Shown here: piece by piece, positions 15,901 through 22,175 of the stretch
How the letters are laid out: every line of letters begins with the position of its first letter
Position numbering within the stretch: the stretch's first letter is position 1
Source: Nitrosopumilaceae archaeon
GTDB lineage: Archaea; Thermoproteota; Nitrososphaeria; Nitrososphaerales; Nitrosopumilaceae
Reading direction: 5' to 3'
Assembly: GCA_965209085.1 (NCBI GenBank)
Contig: OZ242376.1
Coordinates: 1,152,001 to 1,216,000, forward strand
DNA: 64,000 bases
The notes under the pieces: generated by a model
Database searches by the model: none
What the model was told of the DNA's origin: nothing
The model's input: the letters and a program-made list of their open reading frames with translations, nothing else
Program-made: the position numbers and the translations under genes

Positions 15901-16073
15901 AATTGTATTTCATATGCTGTGTGATTTGGAGGTTTTCTCATATTGTGCATGCCGCCGCCAAAAAAGTCAGGATCTAGTACTTTGATGGTTTTGCCGTTTT
16001 CTTTGATTTTTATCCATTTTTCAATTTGTACTAATCTGCCCAGCCAGTCTCTTTTGTATTGATGCCAAATCAC
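12915..16073 (-). CDS. HerA/VirD4-like (DUF87) P-loop ATPase with C-terminal winged helix and putative PD-(D/E)xK-like domain
   Basis: Walker A GSSGCGKT, Walker B LALDEFQ, QARGYGLGLILAHQ (Arg-finger/sensor segment); C-terminal RPDLVAYD...VEIESK. Confidence 0.8.
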   Translation of the reverse strand: MIWHQYKRDWLGRLVQIEKWIKIKENGKTIKVLDPDFFGGGMHNMRKPPNHTAYEIQLAEAYPTFGKKLEPTRTIVTDRIRAYELWKEPQSEQVRIILGAPKGDMKFFANSLNVVNYEILEQTEPAGKPKKTIPFDIELSHMFSFSPMRDDSTDFLESIISAISKMNYAWIQILFVRDERIDTACSRHLSALQDAITDITKDKVELQGSLGSNFKPNYRQVKIPSDKKIPEFMRIAYPDYIQREQENLCVMGIRGIFEADEYDANLKIMQSLAKQLRSKQDSGILMQYPSHQYFEQYLKSRILYDDEAINQLYRNEKIWQDGKWGRGRDMVPFFCVTAKELTDTVCHMPYDEALPLRYNRPHHESLTPERSGWILGTDKKINAENVQYGQILKATSKVTVYDPQDLIRHTYVLGSSGCGKTTLLLNLYSHIIASIASDMPCTYIGIDNKDDDTFEFIKCTPPGINVVLLDIKKTDFGINLLELPEHKNGERDVTVSFMVDHILEMFKEFYSQTQTFVQMERLFKLVLQLLYHNIDSPTMADLHNLVMLFKKNGALERIKRQYRIPNKEFIQALESAASLRFDAWTPILNRVEPFVIDKYLRRHFGVRKTTVKFSQILKPGTVVLIRISDTDTPEDAHKILLMSLVSKIWHAVKKRAAETDRTKRTPVVLALDEFQRIGHMGLIGTLLAQARGYGLGLILAHQNASQIERKILEGIMGNCSTMIFGRLSGFDASKIALMVDPAYSEKLRDSLAGLADHAFFIRQKAPDGHESGMPAYTNSLPPPIPKLDDMQVQQIITTSKERYGIKPEDIQDSSNSDEMARSTKKWMESCTQTLPYEMEWRIILYLQDGPHILIEITRGVNASTRDDVSASLASLNDLEYVQKMPNPKVKRSPIYSLSKRALDAYIDLNYYLIGRSEETPLIAQQAVDYYRKKGWFVCFAIQSGDLRPDLVAYDYSTGLSVSVEIESKTEVKSHPEHVKFNMSKWIKLGFDMCHVWSSSKKIEEIREELDDGYDKVRTFVVDLPDDYKPKASPNKQHGQSASKSEDLKGDDS

Positions 16074-16326
16074 GCATTATAATGCACTTTGTAATAAAAA
16101 AGGTTATTGATCATTTAAGCGGTAATTATACATAAAGTATGCCTATTAATGCAAAAATTATACAGATATGTACGTGTAAGATGAAAATATGACACTGGGT
16201 CTATTTTAGTATAAAATATTCTTTTAAAAATCATATGAATATCATGATCGTATTAGATCATAAATATGAGATTAAAATTTTAAGTTCAGCATAATTTTTA
16301 AAATTTTGATAAAAATACAATAATTG

Positions 16327-16570
16327 GTACCTGTCTAGAGTTTTGAAGTTAAATTGGATAGATATTCTTCCAAATAATCATGAAAGTTCAGATTCCTCAA
16401 CCTGCACGTCCCCTTTATGCTCATCAATATCATGTGAGCTTTGGCTCCATCCTCTGAGCGGTGAGCATTTGTAATCTTGCGTATTACGACATTTGGTCAA
16501 ATCCCCTCTCTCGGCGGTATTGTTGTGTCAGTCAGTACCCGTTTTTTAGAAACGTAAAGGGCACATCTTT
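16327..16570 (-). mobile_element. IS66-family 3' remnant (different subtype)
   Basis: Minus strand reads HNNTAERGI.PNVVIRKITNAHRSEDGAKAHMILMSIKGTCRLRNLNF with lesions. Confidence 0.65.
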
Positions 16571-16573
16571 TTC

Positions 16574-16946
16574 TCGCACGTCCGATTTGCATCAGAGAGT
16601 AATATTTCTGAATTTTACCAACGTCTTGCAAAAAAAAGAGGATCATCCAAGGCCAAAGTTACAGCAGCTGCCAAGATGCTTGATATCATATTTCGTATGC
16701 TAAAGGATAGGAGTGAATTTGAAATACATCATAGTTAAAGCAACAAACCGCGGGTTAGACTTTGGGGATGTTACCCCGGCTGCATAACTGCGGTAAGCTT
16801 TAACATGTGGATAAAGATGGTTGTTGAATTAAATCCCGAATGGATAGATGTTTTTTCATCTTTTGGTTGGAAACAGACACATAGCGAAAGCCATGCCGCA
16901 TGACACAAAAAAGCAAGAAACCCTTAAAATGTATTCACATGGATAA
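16574..16946 (+). mobile_element. IS110-family (IS1111-like) 3' remnant: transposase C-terminus plus non-coding end
   Basis: Reads SHVRFASESNISEFYQRLAKKRGSSKAKVTAAAKMLDIIFRMLKDRSEFEIHHS* (stop 16736-16738), homologous to the 20320 ORF; same terminus CACATGGATAA. Confidence 0.85.
16739..16946 (+). ncRNA. Putative IS110 bridge/seek RNA (copy 1)
   Basis: Stem CCGCGG/CTGCGG enclosing two 10-nt loop strands and hairpin GGGG-ATGTTA-CCCC; second loop with ATGGTT and ATGGATA; conserved with 20112-20319. Confidence 0.7.
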
Positions 16947-17009
16947 GGTCTAATGATTTCACACCATTGAATCATTTTCAAACAAATAAACCTCGATTAT
17001 ATGTAAAAA

Positions 17010-17657
17010 TCAATCTTTGGGAATTATTGCATTTTTTATATCTGTGTCTACCTTATCTTTATTACTCACAATAATTTGTCTACAAATTGGTCCGGAAGTC
17101 CATGCGTCTCGAACTTCACGGTTCTCTTGATATATTTTAGCAATGTTATTAATTTGTTCATTAGTAAAATAAGAACAATCACTCAAAAATTTTGCATTAG
17201 CATTTGCTTCCCTATAACTTGTCGACGTTTTGAGTGTTTTTATCTGTTCATCTAATGCCAATACACCGTCATTTACATATCGTATCAATCCATGACTTAG
17301 TTCATTAATTTCGGAATTTTTTATTTCAGGAGATATTATTTTAGCATGATATTGTCGCATAAATCCATATGGTTCCAGGTCATCAATACGAACAGTATAA
17401 ATTCTCTTATTATTTGCTATGGCATATCCAACTTCATGATCAGTGTATTCTGCACTACGAAAATTATTTGATAGTAAAACCATAAATAATTCACATTTTT
17501 CTATTTGTGCTTTTAATTCATTTAACCAAATATCTGATATGATTAGATCCTTGGAAGATATGAAAACGTCTATGTTTTGTTCGCTGAGTTTATCGTGAAG
17601 TGTATTGGCCACTTCTTTATCCTTATCTGCATAACTAAGAAATACACTGACCATCAT
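17010..17657 (-). CDS. TIR-domain protein
   Basis: VFLSYADKDK, DVFIS..DL, FMVLLS.NF..AEYTDHEVGYA (catalytic Glu position). ATG at 17657 preferred over the TTG at 17702. Confidence 0.85.
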   Translation of the reverse strand: MMVSVFLSYADKDKEVANTLHDKLSEQNIDVFISSKDLIISDIWLNELKAQIEKCELFMVLLSNNFRSAEYTDHEVGYAIANNKRIYTVRIDDLEPYGFMRQYHAKIISPEIKNSEINELSHGLIRYVNDGVLALDEQIKTLKTSTSYREANANAKFLSDCSYFTNEQINNIAKIYQENREVRDAWTSGPICRQIIVSNKDKVDTDIKNAIIPKD

Positions 17658-17733
17658 AATTTGTATTAAATTATATGATATGTAAGTATAGTGATACGCC
17701 AAAGTTCATGAGCGTTTGACCGTTTATGTATAC

Positions 17734-18992
17734 TAGATGTCTTACGTAATAAAAAATTCGGCATAACAATATATTGTGCCTAATAATTAAAGTGTTATGT
17801 TAAAAAATCACATTCTGGAATATGATTTACAGTTAATCTAAGACAATACGCCACATGTCAATTATGTGATCACCGTTTGCAGTAATTCATGTTGGAACAA
17901 TGTAGGTTTGCAAACCCACGCGACAACATGTACATCTGGTCAATATCGGGCGTGCAGTATGATGTTATAATGAGCGTGCCCACTCATTTTTGTAATTTAT
18001 TAATCCGTTTACAACCTGCACGATTCCATCATATTTATCAAATCGTGATCGGAATACATCTCGGCGTATGTTGAATTTCTTAATTCTGCTGTAAACATGT
18101 TCTATCCGTACACGTACGCTTGAGAGTAATTTATTGTGAAATATTTGTTCGCGGGTTCTCTTTTTATTTTTATATTTTTTACAGGGTATGATCGAATTTG
18201 CTTGTGGAAACGCGTCATGTATTCCCTGATATGCACTATCATAGAGATTTGAAACAGAATTCAACAGATCCTGCGTAATTTTGTTTTCACACTGCAGTGG
18301 GTGGTTCTCTTTTACAATGGCATAATCGTGTACACTGCCAGGATATGACATTGAGCTATACAAGATCATTCCGTTTCCGTTTATGACTTCTGTTGTTTTT
18401 CTGGTATGTGTTTTGTGCTTGCCAGAATAGTTTTTCTTTTGTTCTTCCTTGTCACTTGGACGCCATACCCGTTGTTCGGTAGCATCTGTAACGCAATAAT
18501 TGTCAGGAAAATTCTTTTCAAGATCTTTGGAAGATTTTATTTCTAAAACTTGTTTGTGTAGTTTATGTGGAGTTGGAAGAATATCTGCCAATATCTTTAG
18601 AATCATGCCTATGTTTCGTTGTACATTACTTTGATCCAAGTCAAACATGTATCCTATTTTTTCATACGACTGGTATTCTCGTAAATAAACAAGCGTCATT
18701 ATTAACCGATCTGGCAGTGACAAGTGATGTTTCCTGCCTCCTCCTGGACTTCGTTGTCTTTCTGCTGCATCTGCAACATCCAGCTGGCATTCAAGATATT
18801 TTTTACGTATGCCAGGAATCAAGGAATCAAATTCTTCGACCGTAAGACCGGTAAACGCCTTGAATGCACGCGGTTTTTTGCGCATTGTCGTTTCTGAGAA
18901 CACAAAACACAGTAAACATGCATGAAAATAGATCGATGTGATCTAAAAGTTTGGACTGCATGATTGAATTTCTTTATTACGCAAGGCATCTA
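17734..18992 (-). mobile_element. IS5-family (ISL2-like) element, apparently intact
   Basis: TIRs TAGATGTCTTACGTAATAAA / TTTATTACGCAAGGCATCTA flank a full transposase ORF. Confidence 0.85.
17965..18903 (-). CDS. IS5-family transposase (HTH_Tnp_4 plus DDE_Tnp_4 type)
   Basis: FTGLTVEEF, DATEQRVWRP, YSGKHKTHT, GSVHD, YDSAYQG, RVRIEH. Confidence 0.9.
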   Translation of the reverse strand: MFSETTMRKKPRAFKAFTGLTVEEFDSLIPGIRKKYLECQLDVADAAERQRSPGGGRKHHLSLPDRLIMTLVYLREYQSYEKIGYMFDLDQSNVQRNIGMILKILADILPTPHKLHKQVLEIKSSKDLEKNFPDNYCVTDATEQRVWRPSDKEEQKKNYSGKHKTHTRKTTEVINGNGMILYSSMSYPGSVHDYAIVKENHPLQCENKITQDLLNSVSNLYDSAYQGIHDAFPQANSIIPCKKYKNKKRTREQIFHNKLLSSVRVRIEHVYSRIKKFNIRRDVFRSRFDKYDGIVQVVNGLINYKNEWARSL

Positions 18993-18994
18993 CT

Positions 18995-20113
18995 ATACTG
19001 ACACGCAAAAGTAACTGCAATTTATGACTCTAGGCACAATGTAACCGCAAGATATTTGGATCACCTCGTGTATGAATCAATCATGAACAAAGAACATCAG
19101 GAACTGTATAATGCAAGCAGGCATGTCAAAGATGTACGAGAAAACGAAAAAATACATTTTGTAAGCATGGTCAAATACCAAAACATATCCATAGCTAAAG
19201 CTTCTGAATTATTGATGAAAAGCTACAACTGGGGCAAAGAATGCATGCAACGATATGACGAGCTTGGATTAGACGGTCTTAAAATCCTGCCCAAATCGGG
19301 CAGGCCTTTATTATTATCAAATATACGATTTAAAAAAATTATTGACATGACAAGACGAGAGAACGGTTCAGTTGATCCAAAACAGGTAATGCACAACATT
19401 AAACGCAAAACCGGAGTAAAATATCACATATCAAATATCAAATATCAGAAAAAGACTCCACAAATTCTCATGTCAGCAAGGCTCCAAAAAGAATTCATGT
19501 CAATGCAGCGCCAGCATCAGTCTGCTACAACGGGTCACAAAACACTAGGCGTCAAATACGCCTACTTGAAGAGCGTGGATTTGCAGTAGGCGTTCAGGAT
19601 GAATGTATAATAAAATACGATTCATTATCCGGCAAGAAACTCTGGATTGAAATAAGCAAAAATTGTTACGTAAAATCCACAGGTTCTCACAAAAAAGTTG
19701 TTGTCTTTGGAGTACTCTTATAGGATGGCAGGCAGATGTTTGCAAGCTTTGATTTGTTTGATGCAAAACCATTTCTCAAATTTTTAAAAATGGCTCATCA
19801 AAAATTTGGAAAAATTTGCATGATTGTGAATAAAGCTGCACAACACAGAAAATCCAAAATTATTAAAAAATATATCTCCGAGCACAAAGATGAGGTAAAG
19901 CTTTTGTTTTTCCCAAGTTTACCGTTTCTGAGTGCCGTTGAAGAATGCTGGCATCAGGCCAAACGTGTGTTGGTCGTCTCTGAATATTATGAAACATTTG
20001 AGAATATGAAATACGCAATTTCAGAATATTTTAGAACTGTACGATTCAAAGTATCAATCATGGATTTTATTATGAGAAAAGCTGCAGAATGCAGTTACTT
20101 TTGATCCGCAGTT
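18995..20113 (+). mobile_element. IS630-family element, degenerate (ORF fragments 19056-19589 and 19736-20104)
   Basis: TIR core CAAAAGTAACTGCA at both ends; GLDGLKILPKSGRP, QDE, PFLSAVEECW. Confidence 0.85.
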
Positions 20114-20319
20114 ATCCATGTGCCTCTTTTTTAAGTATTTCATGCGTTTTTCCATATTTTTGTACAGTATCCACTAGGGGCTATTTTTCCAATTAAAGAA
20201 TGAGAGACATATATCCATTCGGGGCATTATCCCCACAACCATCTTCATCCACTTGTTAGAGCTTACCGCAGTTAGAATCTCGGAGCACTATCTCCATATA
20301 CTGCGCCGCGGCCGTGCAA
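20112..20319 (-). ncRNA. Putative IS110 bridge/seek RNA (copy 2)
   Basis: CCGCGG-CGCAGTATAT-GGAG ATAGTG CTCC-GAGATTCTAA-CTGCGG, then ATGGTT-GT-GGGG ATAATG CCCC-GA-ATGGATA. Confidence 0.75.
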
Positions 20320-21441
20320 CTAACTGTAATTTTGTTCAAAATCCCGATTCTCCTTTAGCAACCAGTAAATCACCTTTAGCATTTTTCCAGCTGCTGCAAC
20401 TGCAGCCTTAGAGTTTCCTCTCTTTCTTGCAAGCCGCTTGTAAAATATTGAAATGTCACTTTTTGGTGCATGCAGTACGTGCGAGCGTATTGCCTCAACT
20501 AGAACCCACCTGAGCATTCTGCTTCCTCTTTTTGTTATGTGTCCATGATGTACGAGATTGGCAGAATTGCGGACCGATGGTGCAAGTCCTGCGTATGATT
20601 TTAGCTTTTCAGGATCAGAGAATCTCTCAACATTATCAATCTCAGATGCAATCGTTAATGCCGTAAAATCTGCAATTCCGGGGACAGTTTTGAGTATATC
20701 GGCATACCGGCTTGTACGTGCACTCTTGTAGATCAGTACATTGGCTTTTTGTATCTGATTGTCATAAAGGCCAACGGATGCAAGAAAACCGTCTATTCGA
20801 TAGTCGTTTATGGCTTAAAGGCTTGCAATGTATTTGTACGAAAACGTACGTCCTGGAATTTTAATTCCTTTTTGGAGCAGTATTCCATGTATGGAATTTT
20901 TCATATTTGTTCTCGCCTGTACAAGTTTGTGCCTGTATCGGACCAGTTGTCTTTGCTCTACAATCTTTTTACCTGGAACATGGCACTCGTTGATATATCC
21001 TCCTCGCAGCAAATTTGCCAAAATTTGCGCATCAACTTTGTCTGTTTTTTTAGTGGATGCGGCAATGGCCTTTGTCTGATATGGGTTTGAGAGAATCACA
21101 TCAAGATTTAGTCTATCGGTCATGTATCGGAACAGTCCGTACCAGACAGATGATGACTCCATTACCATCTTTGAACCCTCTGGTATGCTTGTTTGGAAAA
21201 ACTTTCTAATGTCCGCGTGTCTGTTTTCAACACGCGTGTTTAAGATCAGTTTGCCTTTGCCGTCAATTGCTGCTATCTGGAGAAATTCTTTATGGGCGTC
21301 AATTCCAACAAACATGGATTTCCTATTAAATGCCCTAGTGTTTTTGTTTGCATTTTGGGCTTTGTTTTTGGGCTTGCGTTTGTTGACTAATACGGATTTA
21401 TCATTTAAGCAACCATCTGAATTCCTTGATTTCTTGGGCAC
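20320..21441 (-). pseudogene. IS110 DEDD transposase with one in-frame TAA (20815-20817)
   Basis: VGIDAHK, MESS, KTDKVDA; the same frame continues after the stop with LKTVPGI, SYAGLAPSVRNSA, GHITKRGS. Confidence 0.9.
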
Positions 21442-21687
21442 ATATGGTTAGGTATGCTACGTTGACATTTTAGTATTATTGCTATTGCATTAATTTCATT
21501 AATCATACCAGGCACACATTTAGCATATGTGTTTTATTCAGAATCAGATGATCTATACAATGGTGATCAATACAATACAGATCAGTTTAAAGATAAATTA
21601 TTAGCATTAGGCACATTTTTGCCATTTCTCAGAAATGATATTTTTCAAGTTGAATTAACATACGGTTATGATGCAGTGGGATTTTAT

Positions 21688-21925
21688 GTAAATGGCTAAT
21701 CCTACAAACCCCTCTCAGAGGATTTTAACCAATTCTGTGTGCGGATTGATACCCCTCATACGCATGGTCTCATAAAAGGCCAGAATAACACCAAACCTTC
21801 TCATGCCTTTTGCATTTTTCAGTCTTCCCTATTCCTTGCGGTACGGTGCGACAGGACATATTGCACGCTCGGCTGCATTGTTTGTCGGTGCCATTCCAGG
21901 ATGCTACAAAAACGTAAACAAATTG
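21688..21925 (-). mobile_element. IS66-family right-end remnant
   Basis: GTAAATGG terminus; homologous to 29860-30114. Confidence 0.75.
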
Positions 21926-22175
21926 GGTGGGAGGGATCAAAGCTAATTTGTCCTAACTGACTTGGTTTCCATGGCTTTACCCTTTGATTTTTTGCTTTCA
22001 TTATAATCGAGGTTAACATTTGGTGTGATCTGGCAAGATTTCCTCGTCGTTTGTGCTTTGTTGATTTCATTAAATTGACTCTGATCTACTGATTCAAAGC
22101 TTTTTCGGTCATTTACGTTCATGATCTAAAAGCTTTATGGTATGTTTTTGATTTTACTCATGGACAGAGCTACGT
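21926..22175 (-). mobile_element. 5' fragment of the IS5-family element found at ~41455
   Basis: Identical N-terminus MKSTKHKRRGNLARSHQMLTSIIMKAKNQ and matching upstream DNA. Confidence 0.8.

Follow-up and report, generated by a model that had tools for sequence, protein, structure and literature searches.

Positions 20112-20319 on the minus strand of the window, by which we mean the whole stretch of 64,000 nucleotides analysed here (G000:C1:1152001-1216000), form the non-coding 3' end of an IS110-family insertion sequence in a Nitrosopumilaceae archaeon. The genome of this archaeon is a single contig of 1.69 Mb with 41% G+C, and its rRNA genes are best matched by the archaeal small and large subunit models of Rfam. 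The element, hereafter copy A, has a body of 1334 bp at 20115-21448 on the minus strand, delimited by the exact points beyond which the four copies of its subgroup (g1) diverge and by the comparison of occupied with free targets. It is bordered by TA cores at 21449-21450 and 20113-20114, with TA-ACCATATGTG as the left end and CACATGGA-TA as the right end, and the stretch under study lies between the stop codon of its transposase and the right end. A second copy on the plus strand (copy B, 16731-16945) is a 3' relic of another subgroup, g2b, identified by a score of 92.1 bits against a covariance model of the region (R1, described below), by alignment and by its junction. The RNA module of copy B covers 16731-16867, and its element end at 16943 is followed by the core TA at 16944-16945 and the flank AGGTCTAAT. 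The alignment of the two non-coding regions noticed in an earlier note on this DNA is borne out, with 146 of 214 columns identical (68%), next to 63% in the last 201 nt of coding sequence.

The transposase frame of copy A (20320-21441, minus strand, established from Pfam and the translation) is open from a GTG at 21439-21441, contains a conserved ATG at 21313-21315 that begins the sequence MFVG, carries an in-frame TAA at 20815-20817 and ends with a TAG at 20320-20322. Its two halves match two domains of Pfam, DEDD_Tnp_IS110 (PF01548, 2.4e-26) and Transposase_20 (PF02371, 7e-23). The longer non-coding stretch lies downstream of the gene, as in the IS1111 group, with 205 nt from the stop codon to the right end; the upstream part measures 133 nt when counted to the ATG of MFVG, and 7 nt should the GTG be the start. 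Two copies of subgroup g2 retain an intact frame, which encodes a protein of 331 residues counted from MFVG (P0001); this protein scores 224.5 bits against the NCBIfam model NF033542, 'IS110 family RNA-guided transposase', for a cut-off of 140, and has the C-terminal motif GL-P----S(T)G/A in the form GLAPSVRNSA. The recombinases of solved structure, ISCro4 and IS621, are matched at 8e-9 and 2e-6, mostly in the C-terminal domain. In the ISCro4 alignment GMDV is paired with GIDV, VMES with CMEA, TDKRDA with TDAVDA and NSA with SGS, the catalytic status being taken from the IS621 numbering in the available part of the structural paper (PMC11208158) rather than residue by residue. The closest named relative of the transposase is on a contig labelled 'MAG: Nitrosopumilus sp. 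D6' (54% identity), and the nearest plasmid-borne one comes from a haloarchaeon, Halorubrum (36.6% identity). Of 401 genomes sampled from the host's family, 61 contain relatives of P0001, a tally that includes the unpublished genome G227, and the homolog set used below takes one locus per genome at 41-62% identity to P0001.

The non-coding region folds into two modules of stem, internal loop and hairpin inside an outer stem. The target-binding module (20255-20324, minus strand as for all features of copy A) rests on single-sequence folds and on the covariation of helices 1-3. It consists of P1 (20320-20324 with 20255-20259, a helix that includes the transposase stop codon), P2 (20306-20312 with 20265-20271) and the P3 hairpin (20282-20295), and all 23 homologs folded singly give the same succession of P1, P2, an internal loop with about 10 nt on each strand, and P3. 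The donor-binding module (20205-20250), contributed by RNAalifold and with helices 4 and 5 covarying, repeats the geometry of stem, 10-nt loop and hairpin, with P4 (20246-20250 with 20205-20209), the P5 hairpin (20220-20235), a 5' loop strand AAGATGGTTG at 20236-20245 and a 3' loop strand AATGGATATA at 20210-20219. Between this module and the right end, a small conserved tail hairpin at 20165-20177 (CTAGTGGATACTG here, CTAGCGAAAGCTA in most relatives) stands out little from shuffled alignments, with 85% of cells paired against 81%, and 4 of 500 shuffles equally high. The stem CCGCGG/CTGCGG reported in the earlier note was found in both copies, as was the compensatory change of the inner hairpin, which reads GGAG/CTCC in the copy at 20112-20319 and GGGG/CCCC in that at 16739-16946.

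This fold is supported by compensatory change well beyond these two copies. Model R1 has 137 positions and 26 base pairs, and its hits were realigned to it; with MAFFT and RNAalifold alone, misalignment of the loops had left P2 and P3 undetected. Over 50 rows, 94.2% of the cells are paired, compared with 83.6% after shuffling, and 20 of the 26 pairs change on both sides; none of 500 shuffles reaches any of the five measures, and partners slid by 1-3 columns pair at 30-49%. The result is maintained in 32 de-replicated rows, of which at most three come from the host genome (92.9% paired against 80.8%, 20 of 26 pairs doubly changed, 0 of 500 shuffles). All five helices covary among these homologs, P3 being the weakest with 84-86% paired, and the covariation of the stems that the earlier note had proposed to check is thus present in both sets. 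R1 matched 4 of 151 genomes of a phylum sample, with 0 matches in the 131 genomes of this sample that belong to 33 other families, and it did not match the nearest plasmid relatives, from Halorubrum and Rhizobium (best E for Halorubrum 0.67). Within the genomes searched, the RNA described by R1 is confined to the family of the host.

In the host genome, a 219-nt query finds 22 places and R1 finds 20 with the same RNA architecture. Together with its recurrence in 23 of 23 homologs and the covarying helices, this confirms that the motif match is beyond chance. The copies fall into three subgroups. Subgroup g1 comprises four copies, with about 98% identity to copy A and an interruption in one of them; besides copy A they lie at genome positions 666533, 730156 and 857782. 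Subgroup g2 has about 65% nucleotide identity to g1 and includes relics, and a single base of the target loop separates its two divisions, g2a and g2b. The third type is a lone relic at genome 329539-329668. The three sublineages g1, g2a and g2b share a common donor module and have differing target modules and correspondingly different insertion sites.

The target loop corresponds to the insertion site. In copy A the 5' strand of the target loop, CGCAGTATAT (20296-20305), is the complement of the right junction's top strand and corresponds to a right-target guide with handshake bases, and the 3' strand, GAGATTCTAA (20272-20281), has the same sense as the left flank followed by TA and the first base of the element, as expected of a left-target guide. 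In copy B (16739-16946) the two strands are GTTAGACTTT and GGCTGCATAA, so that all four differing strands listed in the earlier note are present. The reverse complement of the g1 5' strand, ATATACTGCG, spans an A, the TA and TACTGCG of the product junction, and it is found there, as GG|ATATACTGCG|GATC, at 10 of 10 positions in three of the four g1 copies; the right junction of copy A is shorter by one base, a T, than that of its three sisters (GGATAACTGCGG against GGATATACTGCGG). The target itself belongs to another mobile element. A TA-flanked IS630-like element, probably broken in view of its HTH_32 and DDE_3 Pfam pieces in two frames, occupies 18998-20111 on the plus strand, and its right inverted repeat, CTGCGGATCAAAAGTAACTGC (read from 20111 on the minus strand), is the target of copy A. 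The genome contains five right inverted repeats of this kind, of which four are occupied by g1 and one is free, with the sequence GTATA|CTGCGG. The four left flanks of g1 are all different and the right flank is always this inverted repeat in the same orientation, which indicates separate insertions at one kind of site. Thirteen related repeat ends of the IS630-like type were seen in the genome, and contigs from three sequencing runs (X1 and X2 among them) contain just other copies and free IS630-like ends.

Subgroup g2 has landed elsewhere, at repeat ends of the form TGCA-TA-(A/C)GGTCTA or TGCA-TA-AACTCTA. The guide complement of g2a is AAACTCTAAC, and all four g2a copies are found at ...TGCA-TA-AACTCTA(A/T)T, one of them without an A; the guide complement of g2b is AAAGTCTAAC, and six of ten g2b copies are at (A/C/T)GGTC(T/C)A. 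Free sites of this type, TGCATA-N(A/G)(C/G)TCTA, number 33 in six variants and lie at the ends of several short repeat families. These families end in ATTATGCATA(A/C)(G/A)(G/C)TCTA, the landing sites of g2, and one of them is a palindromic unit of about 75 nt; examples are at G000:C1:290528, 568879-568934 and 694952, and at about 22396 of the window (genome 1174396). Left junctions are always TAA and right junctions are TAA or TAC, following the variant of the free site, so the crossover would fall within the TA and the following A would belong to the element. The TA(A) core suggested in the earlier note is accordingly retained as TA, without its third base, and the guide matches extend at least one base beyond the core into the element. 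In one relative (L034:2526-2910) a sister copy has an element inserted in its target loop, immediately behind GTAA|CTGCAG; the RNA gene contains a near-target since its 3' loop strand runs in the left target's sense.

The same relation was measured in 26 elements, 23 from relatives and three from the host genome. The right guide has on average 7.42 matches to its own flank and 5.23 to those of other elements (5.92 against 4.28 when the flank only is counted), and the left guide, in 25 elements, has 6.76 and 4.56 (flank only, 3.96 against 2.46); in each of these four tests, none of 20000 permutations attained the observed value. The variable loop therefore tracks the insertion flanks, a further point that the earlier note had put forward for verification. 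A scan for the best 10-mer across the target module was noisy (chance, 6-8 of 10). For about half of 27 elements the best match to the right flank fell on the 5' loop strand, and for 15 of the 26 elements whose left end was mapped the best match to the left flank fell on the 3' loop strand. In several elements the automatic assignment of P2 and P3 failed or misplaced the loops, and those of L035, L036, L037, L040, L042 and L044 were set by a looser rule. The flank and end counts leave out L025 (the host's own g2 copy), L031 (identical to L024), L043 (truncated target loop), L047 and L048 (ends or loops unparsed), and L052 and L054 (different context or contig end); L049 is absent from the flank test only, and L053 from the end test and the left-side tests.

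The second loop is related to the element itself. It carries ATGGTT and ATGGATA in both copies, and its 3' strand repeats the right end, reading ATAGATA in exactly 13 of the 13 elements that end in CACATAGATA and ATGGATA in 9 of the 10 elements of relatives that end in CACATGGATA. ATGGATA is also found in the g1 and g2 copies of the host, with the exception of one mutated g2 copy (L017), and two elements show unique matched variants, L050 with the strand ATGAGTA and the end CACATGAGTA, and L047, judged by eye. The mean match of the 3' strand to the right end is 7.23 for own and 6.38 for other elements, a value reached in 0 of 20000 permutations. In g1 and g2 the left terminus, (T)AACCAT, is the complement of the 5' strand AAGATGGTTG, and across the family covariation at this terminus is seen in just the 4-5 bases adjacent to the core (ATGG/CCAT, ATAG/CTAT, ACGG/CCGT). 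The proposition of the earlier note that this constant loop spells both ends is thus upheld for the right end, and for the left terminus within g1 and g2; at that terminus the family as a whole gives a weak signal. Near both ends lie subterminal inverted repeats, CCATATGTGCC on the left (21437-21447) and GGCACATGG on the right (20116-20124), which are related by one indel, begin a few bases in from the ends and agree with the 7-17 bp given for IS1111 elements in the accessible part of PMC11208160. In two relatives (L024:2400-2470 and L051:2740-2770) the right-end segment is tandemly duplicated, with the CCACATGGATA end region present twice.

The 5' strand of the donor loop has a further counterpart, a copy in the same sense within the left end. 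In copy A this internal motif, CAGATGGTTG, is at 21410-21419, in that part of the open frame which precedes MFVG; in nearly every element (loci L024-L051) it recurs 29-41 nt, or about 33 nt, inside the left end, and it covaries with the loop strand. The mean match is 7.08 for own and 5.76 for other elements (0 of 20000 permutations), all eight positions agree in 10 of 26 elements, and nine distinct five-base endings agree exactly (GGTTG, AGCAT, GGTAC, GATAC, GGTAG, GGTAA, GGTGC, GGTAT and GGCAA). No site complementary to the donor 5' strand was found elsewhere in the element in 16 of 16 elements, bar one match of 8 out of 9 in L033, so the only possible partner of the loop strand would be the bottom DNA strand at the internal site. 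We tentatively hypothesise that the donor 5' strand has a second partner in this bottom strand, about 33 nt inside the left end, which may serve as a subterminal docking or self-repression site for the complex of RNA and recombinase; we regard this as possible rather than probable. Alternatively, the internal motif and the donor 5' strand may both answer to an unseen partner. Another candidate role, in which the last bases of the donor 5' strand act as handshake guides for the left target, was rejected, as it fits neither g2 nor L027. In the parts of the bridge RNA and seekRNA literature examined, we found no description of an internal left-end copy or of a subterminal pairing step. The motif is also the second place of an inverted joint seen in one contig each of runs X1 and X2, in which window 21284-21289 is joined to 21419-21424 on opposite strands; this joint may be an assembly artefact given that its sides are just 31-36 letters long.

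The right end also carries an A/T-rich TATA-like box facing outward, CTTAAAAAAG (20126-20135). Among 29 elements, a regular expression located such a box, with sequences like TTTAAAA and TTATAAA, in 20 at a distance of 21-24 nt from the end and in L051 at 36 nt; in the other eight it was recognised by eye. In most relatives the frame is open upstream of MFVG to a GTG in the left repeat, giving open frames of 362-375 residues in comparison with the 331 of the query. Archaeal promoters have a TATA box about 26 nt upstream of the transcription start, and leaderless mRNAs are common. This arrangement suggests that joining of the ends would set the TATA-like box before the gene, as a promoter that serves it only after joining. 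A junction promoter is described for bacterial elements (PMC11187229, in the part available), of which we propose this to be the archaeal counterpart. Between both IS110 copies, the window further contains a 230-residue TIR-domain protein (17010-17702, minus strand; TIR_2, 4.8e-18) and, at 17965-18903 on the minus strand, a 312-residue DDE_Tnp_4/HTH_Tnp_4 transposase of a separate insertion sequence.

We propose that 20112-20319 is the RNA gene, of the bridge RNA or seekRNA kind, of an IS1111-type member of the IS110 family in an archaeon, and we estimate the probability of this interpretation at roughly 85%. The assignment to the IS1111 group is founded on the subterminal inverted repeats, the 3' position of the RNA, the motif GL-P----SA, the protein of about 331 residues and the order of the guide strands. 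The RNA would begin within the last codons of the transposase gene and would probably be released by cleavage from the transposase transcript's 3' end, to be bound by the recombinase. In the target module, the two loop strands would base-pair on either side of the insertion point, the 5' one with the top strand on the right and the 3' one with the bottom strand on the left. In the donor module, the partner of the 3' loop strand would be the bottom strand at the element's right end, and that of the 5' loop strand would be the bases with which the left end begins. Strand exchange at the TA core, where the exact positions of cleavage are predicted to lie, would then be carried out by the DEDD/serine recombinase and would join a circular copy of the element to the target. 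The junction of this presumed circular intermediate would read CACATGGA-TA-ACCATATG.

Two other explanations of the region must be considered. It may be that the first module alone is the guide, as a short seekRNA, that the protein reads the donor ends through the subterminal inverted repeats, and that the second module is devoted to protein binding, processing or regulation. This possibility finds some ground in ISEc11, for which an 82-nt RNA with target matches sufficed for the movement of a mini-IS, according to the accessible text of PMC11187229, and in the 5' strand of the second loop, whose match to the left terminus is barely above chance and whose variable bases mirror the internal left-end motif instead. 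We nevertheless consider it unlikely, since the 3' strand of the same loop covaries with the right end through several independent changes (G/A in 13 elements, L050 and L047), the geometry of the second module is that of the target module, and donor loops are reported in IS1111 members (Durrant et al., PMC11208160, in the part available). It can also be conceived that the region functions at the DNA level, or simply as a 3' untranslated region, with transposase-binding sites, a terminator or a stabiliser of the mRNA, in which case the matches between loops and flanks would result from wrongly set ends or neighbouring insertions, and at copy A a TA-using IS630-like element would have landed by the end of the IS110 element. 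A TA borders every IS630-like end and is also available at the right end of the IS110 element, the folding energy is unremarkable and no RNA was seen in the search of sequencing runs, all of which this explanation would accommodate. It is however rendered highly improbable by the compensatory changes in five helices, which are a signal at the RNA level, and by the g1 guide that matches the junctions at 10 of 10 positions, with guides that change with the flank in 26 elements from many genomes. The constancy of the g1 right flank in sequence and orientation, beside left flanks that differ, is equally opposed to it, as are the g2 targets, which are unrelated to the IS630-like element.

Several observations weigh against our interpretation as an RNA-guided element. 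The transposase of copy A is interrupted by its TAA, so that copy A is unable to act alone. The same codon is affected in all four g1 copies, which occupy four different places, and g1 must therefore have spread after the mutation or with help in trans; the ends and donor loop of the intact g2 elements are nearly identical to those of g1, with one base differing in the 3' strand of the loop, which makes mobilisation of g1 in trans possible. The naturally reprogrammed pair of recombinases envisaged in the earlier note is supported, each computational check proposed there having turned out in favour of it, with the qualifications that the pair is of the IS1111 type, that copy B is a relic without an intact transposase and that the transposase of copy A is interrupted. 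Some of the guides fit poorly: at the four left flanks of g1 the left guide agrees in only 5-8 of 10 positions, chiefly via a constant CTAA, and the match to the own flank is 5 of 11 in L035 and 6 in L032, L051, L053, L036, L037 and L042. Four of the ten g2b copies are at (A/C)CTCTA rather than GGTCTA sites, the occupied g2b sites are mostly 1-2 mismatches away from the guide, and none of the ten is at a perfect AAGTCTA. The match of the donor 5' strand to the left terminus across the family is 4.81 against 4.54, with 21 of 20000 permutations equally high, and only 4 bases pair there in elements of the L027 type. The alignments used for covariation lean toward the structure because they were fitted to R1, and many of their rows are kin. 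The folding energy gave no signal relative to shuffled sequences (z of +0.98 and -0.18), a scan of window 16000-22000 against Rfam at E <= 1 returned no relevant family and just a chance snoRNA-like match, and in the sequencing-run search no RNA run with the sequence of the region was found.

The mechanism proposed here is the published one of bridge RNAs and seekRNAs, and what is new is the archaeal member and the covarying internal motif. The statements that follow are limited to the portions of the cited papers that were available. SeekRNAs have been described for the IS1111 elements ISEc11, ISXne4, ISPa11 and ISKpn4, with natural retargeting in bacteria, and the family is reported to abound in archaea as well as in bacteria (Siddiquee et al, 2024, PMC11187229). 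Bridge RNAs are predicted in the right end of 93% of the IS1111 elements of ISfinder (Durrant et al, 2024, PMC11208160), 662 archaeal IS110 recombinases have been catalogued (bioRxiv 10.1101/2024.06.21.599552), and a 2026 preprint mined IS110-adjacent RNAs in all bacterial and archaeal genomes (10.64898/2026.10.21.760802). Our literature search found no paper on bridge RNAs or seekRNAs of Nitrosopumilaceae, a clade that the data of this preprint and the supplements of PMC11208160 and PMC11187229 may cover. The present system resembles the IS1111 seekRNA systems (PMC11187229) in the RNA encoded downstream of the transposase gene, the subterminal inverted repeats, the match to the top strand located 5' of that to the bottom strand, the conserved stems with differing target matches, the targets at the ends of other repeated elements and the C-terminal motif GL-P----S(G/A), here GLAPSVRNSA. 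It differs from them in its archaeal host, with R1 unmatched beyond the family of that host, in a right end with a TATA-like box in place of half a bacterial promoter, and in the presence of the internal left-end copy of the donor-loop strand, to the extent that those systems are described in the accessible texts. With the bridge RNA of IS621 and ISCro4 (PMC11208160, PMC11208158) it shares the target and donor internal loops, each with top- and bottom-strand guides, the DEDD and serine recombinase, and guide bases that cross the junction, like the handshake guides of IS621 after strand exchange (PMC11208158). In contrast to those elements, the RNA is 3' of the gene instead of 5', the order of the strands within the loops is reversed, the core is TA and not CT, the subterminal repeats are longer and the protein similarity is remote. 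ISHvo9 and ISHvo10, haloarchaeal IS110-family entries of ISfinder, are archaeal IS110/IS1111 elements already surveyed, and are mentioned in the available part of PMC11187229 without analysis of RNA or targets.

RNA-guided recombinases of the IS110/IS1111 type are well established in bacteria and are being developed for genome writing, and the locus described here adds an archaeal clade to them. It also constitutes a natural experiment within one genome, in which a single donor module occurs with three target modules, the RNA copies number 20, and the targets, whether occupied or free, run to dozens. The internal motif raises the question of how the left end is recognised in IS1111-type elements, and, if its proposed role is true, the motif, the outward TATA-box promoter and the start codon in the left repeat would together represent an archaeal rewiring of the switch-on by circle formation. 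To our knowledge, there is no genetic system for the ammonia-oxidising archaea of the host's family, and a programmable recombinase that is native to them and whose guide rules are known could be the start of one.

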